NCBI GenBank assembly: GCA_023484515.1
Contig: JAMDAY010000007.1
Location: 50,179-114,178, forward strand
Source: Patescibacteria group bacterium
GTDB lineage: Bacteria; Patescibacteriota; Doudnabacteria; UBA920
Direction of reading: 5' to 3'
Length of the DNA stretch: 64,000 bases
Position 1 is the first letter of the stretch. Each line of letters starts with the position of its first letter. The notes under the pieces were generated by a model. The model made no database searches. It saw only the letters and a list, made by a program, of their open reading frames with translations, and had not been told where the DNA came from. This document shows, in pieces, positions 2,587 to 52,637 of this stretch. A program made the position numbers and the translations under genes.

Positions 2587-4110
2587 TTAGAATCCATGGA
2601 GGATTTCTATTTTTGCACCCAATTTTTTCAAACGATTGGCCAAATCTTCATAACCGCGGTTAATGGAATAGACGTTACGCAAAATTGACGTGCCTTTGGC
2701 GGCCAGCATGGCAATTAAAATAATGGCGGCCGGCCGCAAGGCCGGCGGGCAGATAATTTCCGCGCCGCGCAACTCAGTGGGGCCTTCAATATACACGCGG
2801 TGGGGATCGGCTAAAATTATATTAGTGCGCAGCTTGTTAAGCTCCATGTAATAAATAGCGCGGTTTTCATAAACCCAGTCATGAACAAGCGTGGTTCCGC
2901 TTGCCTGGGTGGCAATAGGCACAAAAAACGGCAAATTGTCTATGTTTAAGCCGGGAAACGGCCGGGCGTAAATTTTTTCCTCCAAGGCCATAAGCTTGCC
3001 CGGAAACGTCTTAATGTCCGCCAAATTAGTAAAGCCATTCCTGCTTTTATAACGTTTTAAAATCTTAAACTTAAAGCCCATTTTTTCCAGTTTCAGCAGC
3101 TCCAATTCCAAAAAATCCAGAGGACAGCGCTGTATGGTAATGGAAGAATTGGTAGTCGCGGCCAAAGACAAGAACATCATGGACTCTATGGGGTCTTCGC
3201 TTAAATAATAAGTTACCGGCTGGCATAAATCGGCCTTGCCGTGGACAGTCAAAGTGGTAGTGCCAATTCCTTCTATCTTCACTCCTAAAACCTGCAGAAA
3301 ATAGCACAAATCCTGCACCATATAATTGGACGAAGCAAACTTAATGACTGTTTTGCCGGGAATTTTACTGGCTGCCATAATTGCATTTTCCGTAACAGTA
3401 TCCCCGGATTCGTATAAAATAATTTCCGCGGGTTTTAAACGCGCTGCCACCACCTGATAACTGCCATGTTCGGTTTTTATGCTAATCCCAAGTTTTTCAA
3501 GGGCAAACAAGTGCGGCCGCACTGTCCTGGCGCCCAATTTGCAGCCGCCGGCCAAAGGCAATTTAAAATTTTTAGACAGATGGACCAGGGGTCCGAGCAG
3601 CATTAGCACGCTCCTGGTTTTAGCGGCGGCTTCCGCATCAATGTTCCCCAAATCTAAAGCTTGCGGAGGAACAACTTCCACGTCGTTGCCGCTCCATTTC
3701 ACTCCCGCCCCAATGCTGGACAAGACTTCCATAATGCGGAAAACTTCCTCAATTTTAGGCACATTCTTCAGCGTGGTTTTGCCCTTATTCAGCAAGCTCG
3801 CACACAGCAGGGCTACCGCTGCGTTTTTGGAAGTGTTGGTGGCTATAGTTCCAGACAGCTTATGGCCGCCCTCTATTTTAAAATTGACCGACTTGTCGGC
3901 CAAAGTAATTATTTCCTGGTTTAACGCCGCGCTGACCTTGGCCAAAGTTTCCGTAGTCAGGTTCTGCTGGCCTTTTTCCATCCTGGCTACCGCGCTTTGG
4001 GAAGTCTTTAAGGCCTTGGCAAATTCTTCCTGGGTCAAACCTTTTAATTCCCTTAATTCCGCAATAAATTTTCCTATTTTTAACTGCTCCCGGTTAATTA
4101 GTGTCTTCAT
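2587..4110 (-). CDS. murA: UDP-N-acetylglucosamine 1-carboxyvinyltransferase (MurA) with an N-terminal XRE-type HTH domain
   Basis: Residues 1-70 are a classic XRE HTH (LTQEEFAKALKTSQSAVARMEKGQ). The rest is an EPSP-synthase-fold MurA (KLSGTIATNTSKNAAVALLCASLL ...). Confidence 0.8.
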   Translation of the reverse strand: MKTLINREQLKIGKFIAELRELKGLTQEEFAKALKTSQSAVARMEKGQQNLTTETLAKVSAALNQEIITLADKSVNFKIEGGHKLSGTIATNTSKNAAVALLCASLLNKGKTTLKNVPKIEEVFRIMEVLSSIGAGVKWSGNDVEVVPPQALDLGNIDAEAAAKTRSVLMLLGPLVHLSKNFKLPLAGGCKLGARTVRPHLFALEKLGISIKTEHGSYQVVAARLKPAEIILYESGDTVTENAIMAASKIPGKTVIKFASSNYMVQDLCYFLQVLGVKIEGIGTTTLTVHGKADLCQPVTYYLSEDPIESMMFLSLAATTNSSITIQRCPLDFLELELLKLEKMGFKFKILKRYKSRNGFTNLADIKTFPGKLMALEEKIYARPFPGLNIDNLPFFVPIATQASGTTLVHDWVYENRAIYYMELNKLRTNIILADPHRVYIEGPTELRGAEIICPPALRPAAIILIAMLAAKGTSILRNVYSINRGYEDLANRLKKLGAKIEILHGF

Positions 4111-44987: not shown

Positions 44988-45063
44988 TGGTGGGCGCGGA
45001 AGGACTCGAACCTTCGACCAATCGTGTATAAGACGATCGCTCTACCAACTGAGCTACGCGCCC
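44988..45063 (-). tRNA. tRNA-Ile (anticodon TAT, i.e. UAU), CCA encoded
   Basis: Acceptor GGGCGCG/CGCGCCC, D-loop AGTTGGTA, anticodon stem ATCGT/ACGAT with loop CTTATAC, T-arm GAAGG-TTCGAGT-CCTTC. Confidence 0.8.
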
Positions 45064-46842: not shown

Positions 46843-47576
46843 TGCCATCAAACAAGCAAGAAGGGTATAAACATACCCTTTTTATTATTAAACGAAATCA
46901 AATGAAGAAAAAACGCTTATGGTTTGTGTTATTGTTTGCGGTTTTAGGGCTGGCGGCCTTGCAAGTTCCGCTCTTTGCCGTAGTGGGATCAAGCACCAAG
47001 TTTACGCTGTTTGACCTGTTCGGGCCAATCGCTTCAGGGTTTTTAGGCACTATTCCAGGAATACTGGCCGTTTTTTTAATGCAAATTTTTAACTTTTTTG
47101 CCCACGGTTTTTCCTGGTCCAATACGGCCGCAGTCATTAGGATATTCCCCATGGTTTTCGGGGCCTTGTATTTCAGCCGCAAGTCTAAATTAAATATTAT
47201 TGTTCCGCTTTTGGCAATTTTAGCCTGGAACCTCACGCCGGCCGGCCGCGCCGCCTGGTTTTACTCTTTATTCTGGATTATTCCCATAGCTTGTTATTTT
47301 TTGCAAGAAAAATATTTGCTCGCCCGCAGCTTGGGCGCCACTTTTACCGCACATGCGGCAGGAGGGGCTTTGTGGATTTATTTCCTGCCTTTGCCAAAAG
47401 CCGTATGGCTGACGCTAATACCCACAACCTCAATGGAGCGCGCCATTTTCGCCCTGGGCATTGCCGGCATGTATTTGGCGTTTAATAACGCGATCAACTT
47501 TTTGGCGCAAAAGCATTTTCCAAAACTGGGTGTTCTCGTGAACCCAAGATACGCGTGGAAATGGAAAACGGCATAA
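46842..47576 (+). CDS. hypothetical polytopic membrane protein (possibly an ECF-transporter S-component-like protein)
   Basis: Six predicted TM helices; likely start at MKKKRLW (46904). Confidence 0.4.
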   Translation: MPSNKQEGYKHTLFIIKRNQMKKKRLWFVLLFAVLGLAALQVPLFAVVGSSTKFTLFDLFGPIASGFLGTIPGILAVFLMQIFNFFAHGFSWSNTAAVIRIFPMVFGALYFSRKSKLNIIVPLLAILAWNLTPAGRAAWFYSLFWIIPIACYFLQEKYLLARSLGATFTAHAAGGALWIYFLPLPKAVWLTLIPTTSMERAIFALGIAGMYLAFNNAINFLAQKHFPKLGVLVNPRYAWKWKTA

Positions 47577-47611
47577 GTTGCAATATGATTAATGATGCCT
47601 TAAACTGTAGG

Positions 47612-47641
47612 GACAGGCCGCGGCCTGTCCCTACATTATAT
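47612..47641. repeat. REP-like perfect palindrome GTAGGGACAGGCC-GC-GGCCTGTCCCTAC (sibling of 17091-17117)
   Basis: Read directly, just upstream of the folC start. Confidence 0.6.
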
Positions 47642-47644
47642 ATG

Positions 47645-48919
47645 GATAAATTCCCATCTTATTACAAAGCCGTGAATTTTTTGGAAGGCTTGGCCAACAT
47701 GCAGGACAAGCATAATTTTACGGCGGCCGACAGCCGCGCTGTTTTTTTTCTCAAGCGGACCGAATTTCTGTTAAATTTGCTCGGCCACCCGGAAAGATCG
47801 TTTAAAAGTATTCATGTGGCGGGAACCTCGGGCAAGGGTTCGGTTTCTGCCTTAATCCACTCCGCCCTGGTCGTCTCCGGCAAGAAAGCGGGGCTGTTCA
47901 CTTCTCCGTTCGTTACTACTACCGTTGAAAAAATTCAAGCGGGCGCCAAATACATCTCCCCAAAAGAATTTACGGACCTGGTGGAAAAAATAAAGCCCGC
48001 GCTGGACGAAATGGCCGTAACTTCCCCTTACGGGCCGGCTTCTTATTTTGAAGCCCTATTCGCCATGGCAGCGCTGTATTTTAAGAAACAAAAATGCGAA
48101 TGGGCGGTGCTGGAAGTCGGCTGCGGCGGCCGGTTTGACGCGACCAATGCCATTCCGGCGCCAAAAATTTCCATAATTACCAACATCGGCCTGGACCACA
48201 CGAAAACCTTGGGCAAAACTTTAAAAAAAATCGCTTTTGAAAAAGCCGGCATTATAAAAAAAGGGTCAAATTTTTGGACTACGGAACAGCGGCCCAAGCT
48301 TCTGGTTTTTTTTAAAAATACCTGCAAGAACAAAGGCACAAAATTCCACCACATTGAACAAAACAAAAGAGATTATGCCGGACTTAACCGCGAGCTGGCC
48401 CGGCAGGCTTGCCGGCATATTGGCCTGAAAGAAAAAGATATTAAAAAAGGATTTAGCAATGCCTTTACCCCCTGCCGGTTTGAAACCATGCAAACCAAAC
48501 CCCTGATAATTTTGGACGGCGCCCACAACGAAGATAAAATTAAAAGCACGGTTTACAACCTGCAAAGGTTAAAATACAAAAAACTTTTCCTTATAATCGG
48601 CATGGCAGGGGACAAGGACCATTCTAAAATTTTAAAAATGCTGGTGCCGCTGGCTGACCGCATTTTCATCACCAGGTTTGAACTGGCCAAAAGAAAATGC
48701 GCGGACCCGGGAATGTTATACCACGAGACGCAGATGATTAAAAAAAAGGGCGCCAGGTTATTTTTGTACCTGGACCCCAACCATGCGCTAAAACAGGCTC
48801 TAAAACTGGCCGGCAAAAACGACGCCATTTTGGCTACCGGTTCCTTCTACCTGGTGGGCAAATTGCGAGAACACTGGTATCCGGAAGAATGGATTTTAAC
48901 CCGCCGCAAAAGCCGCTAG
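47645..48919 (+). CDS. folC: folylpolyglutamate synthase/dihydrofolate synthase (Mur-ligase family)
   Basis: P-loop IHVAGTSGKGSV and Mur-ligase middle and C-domains; start moved to MDKFPSYY. Confidence 0.8.
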   Translation, partial: DKFPSYYKAVNFLEGLANMQDKHNFTAADSRAVFFLKRTEFLLNLLGHPERSFKSIHVAGTSGKGSVSALIHSALVVSGKKAGLFTSPFVTTTVEKIQAGAKYISPKEFTDLVEKIKPALDEMAVTSPYGPASYFEALFAMAALYFKKQKCEWAVLEVGCGGRFDATNAIPAPKISIITNIGLDHTKTLGKTLKKIAFEKAGIIKKGSNFWTTEQRPKLLVFFKNTCKNKGTKFHHIEQNKRDYAGLNRELARQACRHIGLKEKDIKKGFSNAFTPCRFETMQTKPLIILDGAHNEDKIKSTVYNLQRLKYKKLFLIIGMAGDKDHSKILKMLVPLADRIFITRFELAKRKCADPGMLYHETQMIKKKGARLFLYLDPNHALKQALKLAGKNDAILATGSFYLVGKLREHWYPEEWILTRRKSR

Positions 48920-48945
48920 ACAAAACCCGCAAAATTTGCTATAAT
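48917..48945 (+). promoter_or_regulatory. promoter TAGACA-17-TGcTATAAT (extended -10)
   Basis: Read directly; drives the structured leader upstream of the radical SAM operon. Confidence 0.45.
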
Positions 48946-48976
48946 ACCTATAGAAAAGTGAGTTCTTCTCCGCCAG

Positions 48977-49075
48977 ATGGCGGATGATAGAAACAAAAAT
49001 CAAAAACAATTTGATAAAAAACCAATCCGTCCGCCAAGGGCGGAGGAATATTATCGCCGACATTTTTTGCGGTGA
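48977..49075 (+). other. possible 32-aa leader peptide ORF (MADDRNKNQKQFDKKPIRPPRAEEYYRRHFLR) embedded in twin hairpins
   Basis: ATG lies in the loop of hairpin CTCCGCC-AGAUG-GCGGA; weak RBS; speculative. Confidence 0.15.
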
Positions 49076-49128
49076 TTGGCCAAAAGGTTTGCTTTTGGCT
49101 TACAATAAATCTTCTTCTTACTTTTCTT

Positions 49129-49195
49129 AAAACCCCCGTTTTCGCGCCAGCAATATCCCCTGTAGGGATTTGGCCGAAAAACCGGGGGTTTTTAC
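49129..49195 (+). terminator. leader intrinsic terminator/attenuator AAAACCCCCG...CGGGGGUUUUU
   Basis: 10-bp outer stem enclosing an inner ATCCC-CTGTA-GGGAT hairpin, followed by a U-run; located between the promoter and the first gene of the operon. Confidence 0.5.
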
Positions 49196-49297
49196 TATTT
49201 ATTCCTCCCAAATTGCCGCTAAATAAAACCAAGGTGGCAATTTGGATCGGAATAAAATTTGGTGTAAAATAAAAAGGCCATAAATAATTTTAATGTT

Positions 49298-49576
49298 ATG
49301 GGACAAGAAGACATAAAATCGTTATTTGAAGATAAATACGCCGAAACTTTAGGCTTATCTTACCAGTCCTGGCAGGCTAAGGCGCCGCAGACCGAAGAGC
49401 AGGCTTATGCCCGATGTATTGAGATCGATCGCGAGCTCAACCGGACCTATGACGAGTGGTTTGAAGCCAGAGGGGATAGGAAGGACGAATTGCAGGACTA
49501 CCGCGACAAGCTTAAGGCCGAGTACGATCTGCTGGAAGAGATCTTCCATTTAGAACCTAACGACAGGGACTGGTAA
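49298..49576 (+). CDS. small highly charged protein (92 aa) translationally coupled to the radical SAM gene
   Basis: Stop TAA is 2 nt before the rSAM ATG; aromatic- and acid-rich; single Cys. Confidence 0.5.
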   Translation: MGQEDIKSLFEDKYAETLGLSYQSWQAKAPQTEEQAYARCIEIDRELNRTYDEWFEARGDRKDELQDYRDKLKAEYDLLEEIFHLEPNDRDW

Positions 49577-49578
49577 AC

Positions 49579-50712
49579 ATGAACAACAAAATTGAAAATG
49601 CTTCTCCGGATGCAAAAAGAGAATTGGAAATACCCAAACTTATACTGGCAGGCATGCCAGACTACTTTATTGCACGGGAAGGAAAAGAGGCTTGGAAAGA
49701 TGACAGTCATCCAGTTTATTTAATGATGAATTTGGATACCAAATGCAGTTGCAATTGTATAAAGTGTGCTTTACATGGCCGTAAGCGCGAGCCGGGCCCT
49801 CCTTTGACTACTCAAGAACGGACAGCTTTTCTAGACCAAAATACAGCTACGCTAGGCTTAAAAGAACTAGTAATAATCGGTTACGGCGAACCGACCGAAG
49901 ATTTTGGCAAAGTAGAACCCCTCATTCGCGAAGCTCATAGCCAAGGCATGGGAACAGTAATCTTTTCAAACCTGGGATTCCTTACTAAAGAACAAGCCGA
50001 ATTTTTTAGAGACCATGAAGTTACATTAATTGTAAGCTTAGATGCGGTTGATGAAAATACCTATAACTTCCTGATTGATCCCAATAAAAGAAAGGGTATG
50101 GACCTTAATAAAGTCTTAAAAAATCTTGAATTATTAAAAGAAACATACAGACAAAATAATAAAACTATAAACGAGCAAAAAGTGGTTAGGCTGGGAATTA
50201 ACACCACTGTCTGTAAACAAAATGTTGATCATTTAGAAGAAATAAAGCAACTGGTTGGAAGAGATATGATGTACATAGCCAACCCTCCAATGCGTGAAGG
50301 CAATTTAACGCAAAAAGATCGGTGGAACATCTTAGTTGGAAATCAATATGATTATTTGGCCAAGAGAGCGGCTGAGGTTTCCCAAACAGGGGGTCACAGC
50401 TCTTTGGCCGAAGGTTCTTGCAGTTATTTTAATCGGGGACTTTCCGTAGATTCCGATGGAGAACTTTTAACTTGTGGTTATGCGGTAAATACTGCCCACT
50501 CCATTGGAAATATTAAAGATAACTTATCGCCGCAACAGTTAAAGAACATTTACCGGAAAAACCGTGAAGTCTTTGAAAAATACAGGCAGGAGACCGGAGA
50601 CGAGCAGGCGACTTGCCCATTAAGGAGTAAAAATTTTGAGGATTATTGCCGAAGAATAGCCTCGGCACATAGCAAAAGGCAAAAAGAAAATCCATTTAAT
50701 ATTTTAGAATAA
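49579..50712 (+). CDS. radical SAM enzyme with C-terminal SPASM/twitch-like Cys-rich domain
   Basis: CxxxCxxC motif CSCNCIKC, GYGEPT glycine-rich SAM motif, C-terminal cysteines (CSYF...LTCGY...ATCPL...DYC). Confidence 0.8.
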   Translation: MNNKIENASPDAKRELEIPKLILAGMPDYFIAREGKEAWKDDSHPVYLMMNLDTKCSCNCIKCALHGRKREPGPPLTTQERTAFLDQNTATLGLKELVIIGYGEPTEDFGKVEPLIREAHSQGMGTVIFSNLGFLTKEQAEFFRDHEVTLIVSLDAVDENTYNFLIDPNKRKGMDLNKVLKNLELLKETYRQNNKTINEQKVVRLGINTTVCKQNVDHLEEIKQLVGRDMMYIANPPMREGNLTQKDRWNILVGNQYDYLAKRAAEVSQTGGHSSLAEGSCSYFNRGLSVDSDGELLTCGYAVNTAHSIGNIKDNLSPQQLKNIYRKNREVFEKYRQETGDEQATCPLRSKNFEDYCRRIASAHSKRQKENPFNILE

Positions 50713-50715
50713 TTT

Positions 50716-51492
50716 ATGCTTTACGTTGTCGCCACGCCCATTGGGAACTTAAAAGATATAACTTTGCGGGCCATTGAGACTTTAAAGGCCTGCGATTTTG
50801 TAATTGCGGAAAATCCGGGGTATAGCAGGAGGCTGTTGCAACACATCGCAAACACCAGTGTCATTGCGAGGCCGAATGCATCTGAGGCCGAAGCAATCTA
50901 TCCATCTGACAGTAAGATTGCTTCGCCGTCCGGCCAAAGCCCCGAACGGCTCGCAATGACATCTAAGAAAGAGATTGTCCAATTTGCGGAATTTAACGAA
51001 CAGCAGGTGGTCAAAGAATTGGCTAGACGATTAATAAAAGAAAACGGATGCCTTATCACCGACGCCGGCACGCCTGGCATTTCCGACCCCGGATTCAGGC
51101 TGGTGAGGGAATGTATAAAAAACAACATCGAGATTGTGCCAATCCCCGGCGCCAGCGCCGCAATTACCGCCTTGTCAGCAAGCGGTTTGCCCACGGACAG
51201 GTTTTTATTCCTGGGCTTTTTGCAAAAGACCGCGGCCAAAACCTTGAAAGCCTTAAAAGACGCCGAACAAGCTGAAGCCACGGCCATATTTTACGAATCC
51301 CCGGAAAGAATTTTCAAGACCATGAGTTACATTGCCAACGCCTTCCCGTCTTCCCAAGTCGTTATCGCGCGCGAACTAACCAAACTCCACGAAGAATTCA
51401 TCCGCGGCAGCGCGGGGGAAGTGCTGGAAAAGCTGAAAGAAAGAACCTCAATAAAAGGAGAATTTACAGTCCTTGTATCATTTAAAAATTAA
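50716..51492 (+). CDS. rsmI: 16S rRNA (cytidine1402-2'-O)-methyltransferase RsmI carrying an in-frame palindromic-element insertion
   Basis: MLYVVATPIGNLKDITLRAIETL N-terminus and DAGTPGISDPGFRLV motif; about 37 extra residues between LLQH and NEQQ encoded by the 50859-50961 element. Confidence 0.8.
   Translation: MLYVVATPIGNLKDITLRAIETLKACDFVIAENPGYSRRLLQHIANTSVIARPNASEAEAIYPSDSKIASPSGQSPERLAMTSKKEIVQFAEFNEQQVVKELARRLIKENGCLITDAGTPGISDPGFRLVRECIKNNIEIVPIPGASAAITALSASGLPTDRFLFLGFLQKTAAKTLKALKDAEQAEATAIFYESPERIFKTMSYIANAFPSSQVVIARELTKLHEEFIRGSAGEVLEKLKERTSIKGEFTVLVSFKN
50859..50961. mobile_element. 'TGTCATTGC...GCAATGACA' palindromic element inserted in-frame in rsmI
   Basis: Shares TIRs, the CGAAGCAATC/GATTGCTTCG inner hairpin and GTCCGGCC with the carA copy; same orientation relative to the host reading frame. 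Confidence 0.7.
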
Positions 51493-51515
51493 CAAATTCA
51501 CAAATTTACAAATTT

Positions 51516-51884
51516 ATGAAACCGGAGGATTTGCAAAAAAGGACCAAAAAATTTGCAATTAGGGTAATTAAATTCGCTCAATTTCTTGAAACGAAAGGAA
51601 TTGTTGGGGTAGTAATCGCAAAACAATTATTACGCGCAGCTACCTCGGTTGCGGCGAATTATCGAGCAGTTTGCCGAGCCAAATCTGGAAAAGATTTTGT
51701 TAATAAATTAGGGATAGTTGTTGAAGAGGCTGACGAAACGCAATTTTGGCTGGAATTAGCGGTAGAGTCAGGATTGGTGGAAACGAGTATGATTCAAGAC
51801 CTGCTTAAAGAAGCTACGGAGGTTACAGCCATCATGCAGGCATCAAAGTCGTCGGCTATTCGCAATCACGTAGGGAAAAAATAA
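51516..51884 (+). CDS. four-helix-bundle protein (TIGR02436 / 23S rRNA-IVS protein family)
   Basis: KDFVNKLGIVVEEADETQFWLEL signature. Confidence 0.6.
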   Translation: MKPEDLQKRTKKFAIRVIKFAQFLETKGIVGVVIAKQLLRAATSVAANYRAVCRAKSGKDFVNKLGIVVEEADETQFWLELAVESGLVETSMIQDLLKEATEVTAIMQASKSSAIRNHVGKK

Positions 51885-51923
51885 TTTGTTAATTTGTGAA
51901 TTATTAAATTTTATTTAATTTCT

Positions 51924-52637
51924 ATGTCTGGACATTCCAAATGGGCGCAAATTAAAAGAACTAAGGGCGTTTTGGACCAAAAGCGTGGGCTGCTGTTTTC
52001 CAAACTATCCAAAAAGATATCAATTGCAGTCAAAGAAGGGGGCAGCACTGACCCCGCGGCTAATTATAAATTAAAGGCCGCGATGGATTACGCCAAAGAC
52101 CAGGGCATGCCCAATGACAACATTGAACGCGCCATAAAAAATACGGCCAATGCCGGGGAAATTAAGGAAGTGGTTTACGAAGGCTACGGTCCTTTTGGCA
52201 CCGCGTTTTTGGTGGAAGCTGCCACGGACAGCCCTAACCGCACTACCAATAACATCAAGCATATTTTTTCCAAGCACAACGGCAACATGGGAGCGCAAGG
52301 CTCGGTTGCCTGGCAGTTCGTGACTAAGGGCCAAATTTTGGTGGAAAGGGAGCGGGAAGATTTGTCCGACCTTGAACTAGCCGCTATTGATGCCGGAGCC
52401 GAGGACGTGCGCGAATCCAAAGAAGGACTGGAAGTTTATACCTTGCCTTTGGATCTGCAAAAGGTCAAGGACATGCTAATAAAAGCCGGCGCCAAAGTGG
52501 CGCGAGCGGATATTATCAAGGAATCTTCGCAGGGCACGGACTTAACCGAAGATCAAAAACCGAAAGTGGACGCATTGTTTGCGGAACTGGAAAACGACGA
52601 GGATGTGATTGCAGTGCATACGTCGGCTAATTTATAG
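51924..52637 (+). CDS. yebC: YebC/PmpR-family DNA-binding transcriptional regulator
   Basis: MSGHSKWAQIKRTKG N-terminus is diagnostic. Confidence 0.9.
   Translation: MSGHSKWAQIKRTKGVLDQKRGLLFSKLSKKISIAVKEGGSTDPAANYKLKAAMDYAKDQGMPNDNIERAIKNTANAGEIKEVVYEGYGPFGTAFLVEAATDSPNRTTNNIKHIFSKHNGNMGAQGSVAWQFVTKGQILVEREREDLSDLELAAIDAGAEDVRESKEGLEVYTLPLDLQKVKDMLIKAGAKVARADIIKESSQGTDLTEDQKPKVDALFAELENDEDVIAVHTSANL

Follow-up and report, generated by a model that had tools for sequence, protein, structure and literature searches.

Stand-alone bacterial RNA genes of the 6S RNA and raiA-motif RNA type combine a strong promoter, a compact multi-helix fold with covarying pairs and a constitutive terminator; they are non-coding and occur once per locus. 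Terminating riboswitches carry a conserved junction with invariant unpaired bases 5' of a conserved gene, and their terminator follows right after the closing helix. We find sequence features of both in a 64,000-nucleotide (nt) stretch of DNA from a Patescibacteria group bacterium of the Doudnabacteria type (contig JAMDAY010000007.1, positions 50,179 to 114,178, forward strand; "the window" below means this whole stretch), in the 378-nt intergenic region that separates the folC ORF from the ORF of a 92-aa protein, small92, which is followed in turn by a gene for a radical S-adenosylmethionine (SAM) enzyme. Bacteria of the Candidate Phyla Radiation (CPR) have tiny genomes in which non-coding DNA is scarce, and to our knowledge hardly any structured RNA specific to one of their lineages has been described. 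The initial annotation of the window treated leader, small protein, and enzyme as one composite system, in which an attenuating leader controls a modification pair of the kind that makes ribosomally synthesized and post-translationally modified peptides (RiPPs). Comparison with related loci separates these parts; with a probability of roughly 0.6, the locus comprises three separable things, namely a structured RNA gene, an operon-like small92-rsmI-yebC-ruvC block, and a twitch-domain radical SAM gene.

The sequence comparisons give good support for reading the leader as a conserved folded RNA, not catalogued before, that has a predicted promoter and terminator of its own, is specific to one Doudnabacteria-type clade of ultra-small bacteria, and lies outside all Rfam families; this is what is new here. 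The leader spans 48952-49297 (~346 nt), and its 48951-49193 portion folds at -102.7 kcal/mol, compared with an average of -58.9 ± 4.8 kcal/mol for shuffled sequences (z = -9.1). A scan for small92 homologues, taking one genome per species, gave 27 loci; in 15 of these, nhmmer with the window leader as the query matched 48917-49200, as DNA, to the sequence immediately upstream of small92, and the addition of three loci (L032, L098, and L159, the last being the closest relative of the window) brought the set to 19 distinct RNA sequences. RNAalifold recovers a five-helix structure (P1 to P5) in which 14 to 18 pairs show compensatory changes. In a model-fitted alignment, 15 of the 32 scored base pairs (in P1, P2, P4, and P5) change on both sides, as opposed to 7.2 ± 1.5 in shuffles (0 of 500 reach 15) and 3 to 6 in slid controls; standard pairs fill 95.5% of the cells, a value which falls to 40 to 56% when the 3' partners are slid by 1 to 3 columns, and all five covariation measures lie above 500 of 500 shuffles and above every slid control. 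Single-sequence minimum free energy folds contain most or all of the P1-P5 architecture in each of 18 sequences, and in L032 both strands of P1 are one pair shorter, a coordinated change that can be read directly from the sequences. G-U pairs are abundant in the helices, which identifies the plus strand as the functional RNA strand. The cores measure 149 to 189 nt, and many lengths in between occur; since the differences are not multiples of three and no start codon is conserved, the RNA does not appear to be coding.

A covariance model of the RNA (R1) scores the window at 121 bits and finds exactly one copy per locus, with no second copy in the rest of the 64-kb window and, whether filters were applied or not, no divergent copies in the small92 loci that lack the RNA. 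The RNA-bearing loci form one clade in the RsmI tree. Because the RNA is found in every sampled locus of this clade (19 distinct sequences), it likely does something important, and the covariance model, the defined helices, and the invariant joiners offer a testable entry point. No Rfam 15 family gives a real match to the leader at E ≤ 10 (the best, PK-repBA, lies on the opposite strand with 23 bits vs 45); at the gathering threshold, a scan of the window returned only chance hits for the RNA, and a scan of eight homologous loci returned nothing on it except a 33-bit chance match to His_leader. No known riboswitch family matches the leader. A metagenome scan with the unspecific pattern TAGAAAAGTNANTTCTTC contained, among the matches listed, the RNAs of L098 and L109 as true ones, that of L109 being identical to L012; there was no RNA match in viral contigs, and literature searches found no published description of a CPR or Doudnabacteria RNA motif like this one. 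In its fold the RNA differs from 6S RNA, with five helices around a junction and an A-rich linker in place of a rod with a central bubble, and it differs from the orphan RNA genes as a group in its lack of an Rfam match, its confinement to one Doudnabacteria-type clade, and its constant position beside small92.

The core of the RNA (48952-49127, plus strand, ~176 nt) is closed by P1, in which 48952-48962 pairs with 49117-49127 (AGAAAAGUnAG with CUnnnACUUUUCU); alignments of the homologues give UAGAAAAGU as the predicted start of the transcript. P2 (48963-48992) has the form UUCUUC-loop-GAAGAA with a tip of variable length, and an A-rich linker with an invariant AAAC-AAAA (48993-49026) leads from it to P3 (49027-49046), which reads CCGUCCGCC-AAG-GGCGGAGG in the window and is free to vary in sequence among homologues. 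P4 (49053-49076) and P5 (49078-49100) follow, and a joiner containing an invariant CUUCUU (49101-49116) precedes the 3' strand of P1. A single 8-bp hairpin had been annotated behind a pair of near-duplicate hairpins; a hairpin of that type is there, but two exist, P4 and P5. The first of the near-duplicates is a hairpin in the loop of P2 (48968-48986, plus strand; CUCCGCC-AGAU-GGCGGAUG) that is specific to the window: it is missing from 13 of 17 other aligned homologues and from L159, and the P2 extensions found elsewhere are unrelated to it (L017 and L018) or short (L032 and L098). As the second is P3, with its freely varying sequence, we rejected the two as a functional pair. A 32-aa ORF does exist at 48977-49075, but the peptide is not conserved, since its AUG (48977) lies inside the window-specific insertion, which most homologues and L159 lack; it was therefore discarded as a leader peptide, and translation-dependent attenuation through it finds no support either.

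Transcription of the RNA would be driven by a sigma-70-type promoter, TAGACA-17 nt-TGcTATAAT (48917-48945, plus strand), with its -35 box at 48917-48922, overlapping the folC stop codon, and TGcTATAAT at 48937-48945. With 11 of 12 matches plus the TG extension, it is the best promoter-like site in 47500-52000, and its boxes and spacing are kept in the aligned homologous loci, which include two -35 variants (TTGCAA). The predicted intrinsic terminator (49129-49193, plus strand) consists of an outer stem, AAAACCCCCG/CGGGGGUUUU, that encloses a branched interior, with a U-tract behind it, and ends in GGGGGUUUUU. It is found in all aligned homologues in the form AAAAACCCC...GGGGUUUUU, 1 to 2 nt after the 3' strand of P1, with compensatory changes at two stem pairs; its stem has a probability of 1.00 in all 19 sequences, and the folding energies of terminator and core are additive. 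The annotated leader thus stands as a structured element with a genuine terminator, the composite stem-loop near its end, on the strength of 19 distinct sequences and strong covariation, and its promoter, its hairpins, both ORFs, the 2-nt gap between them, and the CSCNCIKC and GYGEPT motifs of the enzyme were all found at the annotated positions. What lies between the terminator and small92 (49194-49297, plus strand) is an unconserved spacer of roughly 50 to more than 260 nt, depending on the locus, that cannot be aligned even with L159, where the RNA core is well conserved. The 10-bp hairpin annotated in this spacer is present (49208-49245) but restricted to the window, and with no conservation in homologues it was rejected as a functional element.

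We think it probable, from the sequence features, that the RNA acts as a stand-alone small RNA. Transcription would start near 48952, the transcript would fold into the P1-P5 junction with its A-rich linker and invariant CUUCUU joiner, and transcription would stop at the terminator, acting constitutively, to give a stable RNA of ~240 nt (184 to 243 nt in relatives). P1 and the terminator each form with a probability of 0.98 to 1.0 in all 19 sequences; the minimum-energy structure has no cross pairs between the core and terminator modules in 18 of the 19, and at most one overall; and in every sequence the energies of core and terminator add up to that of the full fold. Because P1 and the terminator coexist and their energies are additive, there is no antiterminator of the riboswitch or attenuator kind, and the ligand-dependent attenuation that had been proposed for the leader, insofar as it would work by alternative folding, finds no support. 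The lack of an antiterminator, the variable and unconserved spacer, the restriction to a single clade, and the nature of the position itself favor an independently terminated stable RNA. In a sister clade, a tRNA-Ile(UAU) gene fills the slot directly upstream of small92 and is preceded by a similar promoter, CTATAATACCTA, and in L162, which lacks the RNA, the region upstream of small92 (3180-3460) has a TTGACA-17-AATAAT promoter with a short hairpin and T-tract behind it, together with a tRNA-like sequence ending in GGTTCGATTCCGCC...GCCACCA (no ARAGORN call; Rfam tRNA-Sec only 22 bits). On these grounds the position upstream of small92 behaves as a "stable-RNA slot." The tRNA-Ile(UAU) gene is syntenic with small92-rsmI-yebC-ruvC in most sampled loci: it lies directly upstream and on the same strand in the RNA-less clade (at about 3870-3975, plus strand, in L022, L023, L026, L027, and L031) and usually on the opposite strand (L018 has it on the plus strand), at a distance of 70 nt to 4 kb upstream, in the RNA-bearing clade, as in the window (44988-45063, minus strand).

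Several points weigh against this picture of an independent RNA gene and separable neighbors. The RNA lies upstream of small92 and co-oriented with it in 19 of 19 sequences, which is what a cis-regulatory leader would show as well, and we identified no convincing separate promoter for small92. The search for copies in the RNA-less lineages covered their small92 loci. The radical SAM gene recurs between small92 and rsmI in L032, which could mean long co-inheritance with small92 and not casual insertion. Finally, the transcription start, the 3' end, the stability, and the mode of action of the RNA are all deduced from sequence alone. In most homologues a TAAAAT-like box can be seen by eye ~20 nt past the terminator; in the window this box is weak, and the promoter scan did not pick it up. 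No Shine-Dalgarno-like sequence was seen before the small92 start in the window (49268-49297) or in most relatives (28 loci).

It is possible, though we doubt it, that the RNA is a cis-acting 5' leader of the small92-rsmI-yebC-ruvC operon, either a riboswitch or a protein- or RNA-controlled attenuator, in which a ligand or factor bound at the five-helix junction would alter the efficiency of the downstream terminator. Such a role would suit the fixed position and orientation in all 19 loci, a multi-helix junction with invariant unpaired nucleotides of the kind typical of aptamers, a terminator placed within 1 to 2 nt of the P1 3' strand, and a small92 gene without a clear promoter of its own. 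It fits poorly with the coexistence of junction and terminator (0.98 to 1.0, with additive energies, in 19 of 19), which leaves no mutually exclusive antiterminator pairing of the sort on which terminating riboswitches rely, and with a spacer between terminator and ORF that is long, variable, and unconserved; moreover, related lineages express small92 without the RNA, some with a tRNA gene in its place, and there is no match to any Rfam riboswitch. In a broader and equally tentative form, the five-helix RNA might represent a new class of regulatory RNA, be it a riboswitch or factor-binding leader or a small RNA directed at the polymerase or the ribosome, that was invented once in the Doudnabacteria clade at the site where sister lineages have tRNA-Ile(UAU), and that controls or cooperates with the translation-related small92-rsmI-yebC block.

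We consider it improbable that the RNA works together with small92 as an RNA-protein pair, or that it modifies RNA polymerase for processive antitermination past its own terminator in the manner of putL or EAR. The HK022 put sites and the Bacillus EAR element have a comparable order of promoter, RNA, terminator, and operon, and by analogy the strong promoter, structured RNA, and terminator ahead of a multi-gene block resemble that anatomy; the RNA and small92 also remain neighbors in loci that differ in the upstream gene and at the small92-rsmI junction. Nonetheless, neither in sequence nor in structure does the RNA resemble EAR or another Rfam family, the strong acidity of small92 (pI 4.4) would be uncommon in a protein that binds RNA, and the protein is equally conserved in lineages without the RNA. 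Pairing of the CUUCUU joiner with the small92 start region (AAGAAG) was considered as a means of cooperation and rejected, as loci without the RNA carry the motif just as often and many loci with the RNA lack it, so that this complementarity does not separate the two groups.

The small92 gene (49298-49576, plus strand) is the first of the conserved small92-rsmI-yebC-ruvC block. The protein is aromatic- and acid-rich, as first described (12 aromatic residues and 25 D/E), and its stop codon lies 2 nt before the ATG of the 377-aa radical SAM ORF. Its homologues fall into 82 clusters that are 58 to 84% identical over the full length and almost always 92 aa long, with 21 invariant columns spread along the sequence, no invariant Cys, and no repeated motif. 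An AF2 model (pLDDT 88) is all-helical, with five helices, and has no significant fold match in the PDB; no family was found for small92 in Pfam, NCBIfam, PADLOC, or PHROGs. A profile search run exhaustively over 1.8 billion representatives gave only 14 small92 proteins at E ≤ 0.001 (10 at E ≤ 1e-10), and the family is therefore narrow. Its neighborhood is conserved as small92-rsmI-yebC-ruvC followed by tyrS on the opposite strand; the synteny of small92 with rsmI was shown in 25 species loci and L159, and in 27 of 27 species genomes small92 is followed by rsmI-yebC-ruvC without a radical SAM gene. As judged from sequence and the predicted structure, small92 is a conserved, folded, acidic, helical orphan linked to rsmI, with a housekeeping-type profile and not that of a RiPP precursor or a PqqD/RRE protein. 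The RRE fold contains a beta-sheet, whereas small92 is predicted to be all-alpha. The proposal that small92 serves as a precursor or recognition element finds no support, given its uniform conservation, its helical fold, the lack of an invariant Cys, and the lack of a PqqD/RRE hit.

The radical SAM gene (49579-50712, plus strand) sits between small92 and rsmI, a junction at which none of the 27 species loci has such a gene. L159, whose small92, RsmI, and FolC are 84%, 78%, and 57% identical to those of the window, has the order folC-RNA-small92-rsmI-yebC-ruvC-tyrS with no radical SAM gene and a small92-rsmI gap of 74 nt. In other lineages, genes for an alpha/beta-hydrolase, a PIN toxin, or a rhodanese occupy the junction, or else a TrmB regulator together with further genes, a cupin among them (inserts at L005 4368-5488, L006 4599-5000, L007 4344-4631, L024 2250-4453, and L029 4264-4551); by this comparison, it is an apparent insertion hotspot, a hypervariable slot. 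The order small92-radical SAM-rsmI is repeated only in L032, whose radical SAM protein, RsmI, and small92 are 64%, 64%, and 59% identical to those of the window. Since L159 is closer to the window than L032, the enzyme gene either was ancestral and has been lost many times or entered this junction on two occasions. Under either history, the distribution suggests that the enzyme is dispensable for small92 and small92 for the enzyme family. The radical SAM gene would then encode an accessory enzyme in a variable slot, and the 2-nt spacing would reflect genome compaction and not a peptide-modification system.

The twitch enzymes BtrN and SkfB and the SPASM RiPP maturases CteB, SuiB, anSME, and PqqE share with the window enzyme the CX3CX2C and GxGEP motifs and a C-terminal CX12GX4C beta-hairpin motif. 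Among 19 homologues of the window enzyme, the invariant positions are C56-x3-C60-x2-C63 (inside CSCNCIKC) and G101-x-G103-E104-P105 (in GYGEPT), and Pfam Radical_SAM (PF04055) is matched at 38 bits vs the cut-off of 29.5. In the C-terminal domain, C281-x12-G294-x4-C299, which fits the twitch beta-hairpin pattern CX9-15GX4C, and C346 are invariant, with only three Cys in all; the CX2CX5CX3C block of seven-Cys SPASM domains does not occur in the family, and Pfam SPASM (PF13186) stays at 20.6 bits, under its cut-off of 21.5. Three Cys and the twitch/SPASM opening motif imply a single auxiliary cluster whose fourth ligand position is open or not a Cys, so of the annotated SPASM/twitch-like cluster the twitch-type part stands and the full SPASM domain does not: the enzyme is, by its sequence motifs, a radical SAM protein that carries one auxiliary-cluster domain of the twitch type, and it belongs to an uncharacterized family. 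MoaA also uses a three-Cys auxiliary cluster, and the nucleotide enzymes of the MoaA/viperin type resemble the window enzyme in having comparable fold scores and in that some homologues of the latter lie beside NTP-transferase and NUDIX genes; they differ in that MoaA (35 bits) and pVip (32 to 35 bits) fall far below their cut-offs, the C-terminal domain is unlike that of viperin, and there is no molybdenum cofactor (Moco) context.

All NCBIfam models are far below cut-off for the enzyme, the best being TIGR04317 (54.7 bits vs 380), with PqqE (TIGR02109) at 27.4 vs 381, anSME at 21.9 vs 349, and MoaA at 35 vs 325; no equivalog of a characterized family, the non-RiPP anSME and MoaA included, was reached. 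The AlphaFold model (pLDDT 83) is matched by Foldseek about equally to CteB, viperin, SkfB, MoaA, SuiB, EpeE, anSME, BlsE, and DesII (TM-scores of roughly 0.45 to 0.58, E-values of 1e-11 to 1e-8, and 12 to 22% identity), and for this reason no single substrate class is singled out. A defense or phage origin found little to recommend it: PHROGs gave no hit, and the only similarity to pVip is a weak one in the core (32 to 35 bits). Only 21 homologue clusters make up this rare family, and seven of eight distinct contexts, mutually unrelated, are without small92; its members adjoin an NTP-transferase, NUDIX hydrolases, TaqI restriction-modification, TenA-like, or TauE genes, or ruvC-yebC on the opposite strand. 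The last case is L004 (2653-5082), where a 46%-identical homologue in an unrelated "bacterium" metagenome-assembled genome adjoins ruvC-yebC, convergently, after two NUDIX genes; this adjacency could be a coincidence or the remnant of an older synteny.

That the radical SAM enzyme and small92 form a RiPP-like modification pair, with small92 as substrate, recognition element, or chaperone, is very improbable, because the 2-nt gap on one strand, the recurrence of the gene order in L032, the RiPP maturases CteB, SkfB, and SuiB among the best PDB fold matches, and a weak similarity in the SPASM region are set against small92 without the enzyme in 27 of 27 species loci and in the closest relative, the enzyme family without small92 in seven other contexts, a small92 that is conserved over its whole length with a confident helical fold and no invariant Cys or repeated motif, no PqqD/RRE domain in either protein (Pfam and NCBIfam at E ≤ 1), only three invariant C-terminal Cys and thus no two-cluster SPASM domain, and about equally good fold matches to the non-peptide enzymes viperin, MoaA, BlsE, and DesII. 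The enzyme accordingly differs from the twitch and SPASM maturases in its three auxiliary Cys, in lacking CX2CX5CX3C and RRE/PqqD, and in having no conserved peptide partner here, and small92 is probably not its substrate. The neighborhood comparison on which the annotated pairing could have been upheld gave it no support, and tight spacing of a radical SAM gene with a small ORF in a compacted genome does not amount to evidence for a RiPP system.

The genes around these elements are all on the plus strand up to ruvC. The gene ahead of the RNA, folC (ORF 47555-48919), ends at the promoter of the RNA. Downstream of the radical SAM gene, rsmI (50716-51492) encodes the 16S rRNA C1402 2'-O-methyltransferase (TIGR00096, 223.7 bits vs a cut-off of 167.9) and is followed by a gene for a 23S-rRNA-IVS protein (51516-51884; PF05635, 59.9 bits), by yebC and ruvC, and, beyond these, by tyrS on the minus strand. 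The 23S-rRNA-IVS-protein gene between rsmI and yebC is missing from L159; ORFs of similar size, a resemblance of size only, occupy the same place in L010, L017, and L025. The folC ORF as listed opens at GTG 47555, and the alignment with FolC of L159 begins only at residue 29. The true folC start is therefore probably downstream of a perfect 13-bp palindrome at 47606-47635 (TGTAGGGACAGGCCGCGGCCTGTCCCTACA).

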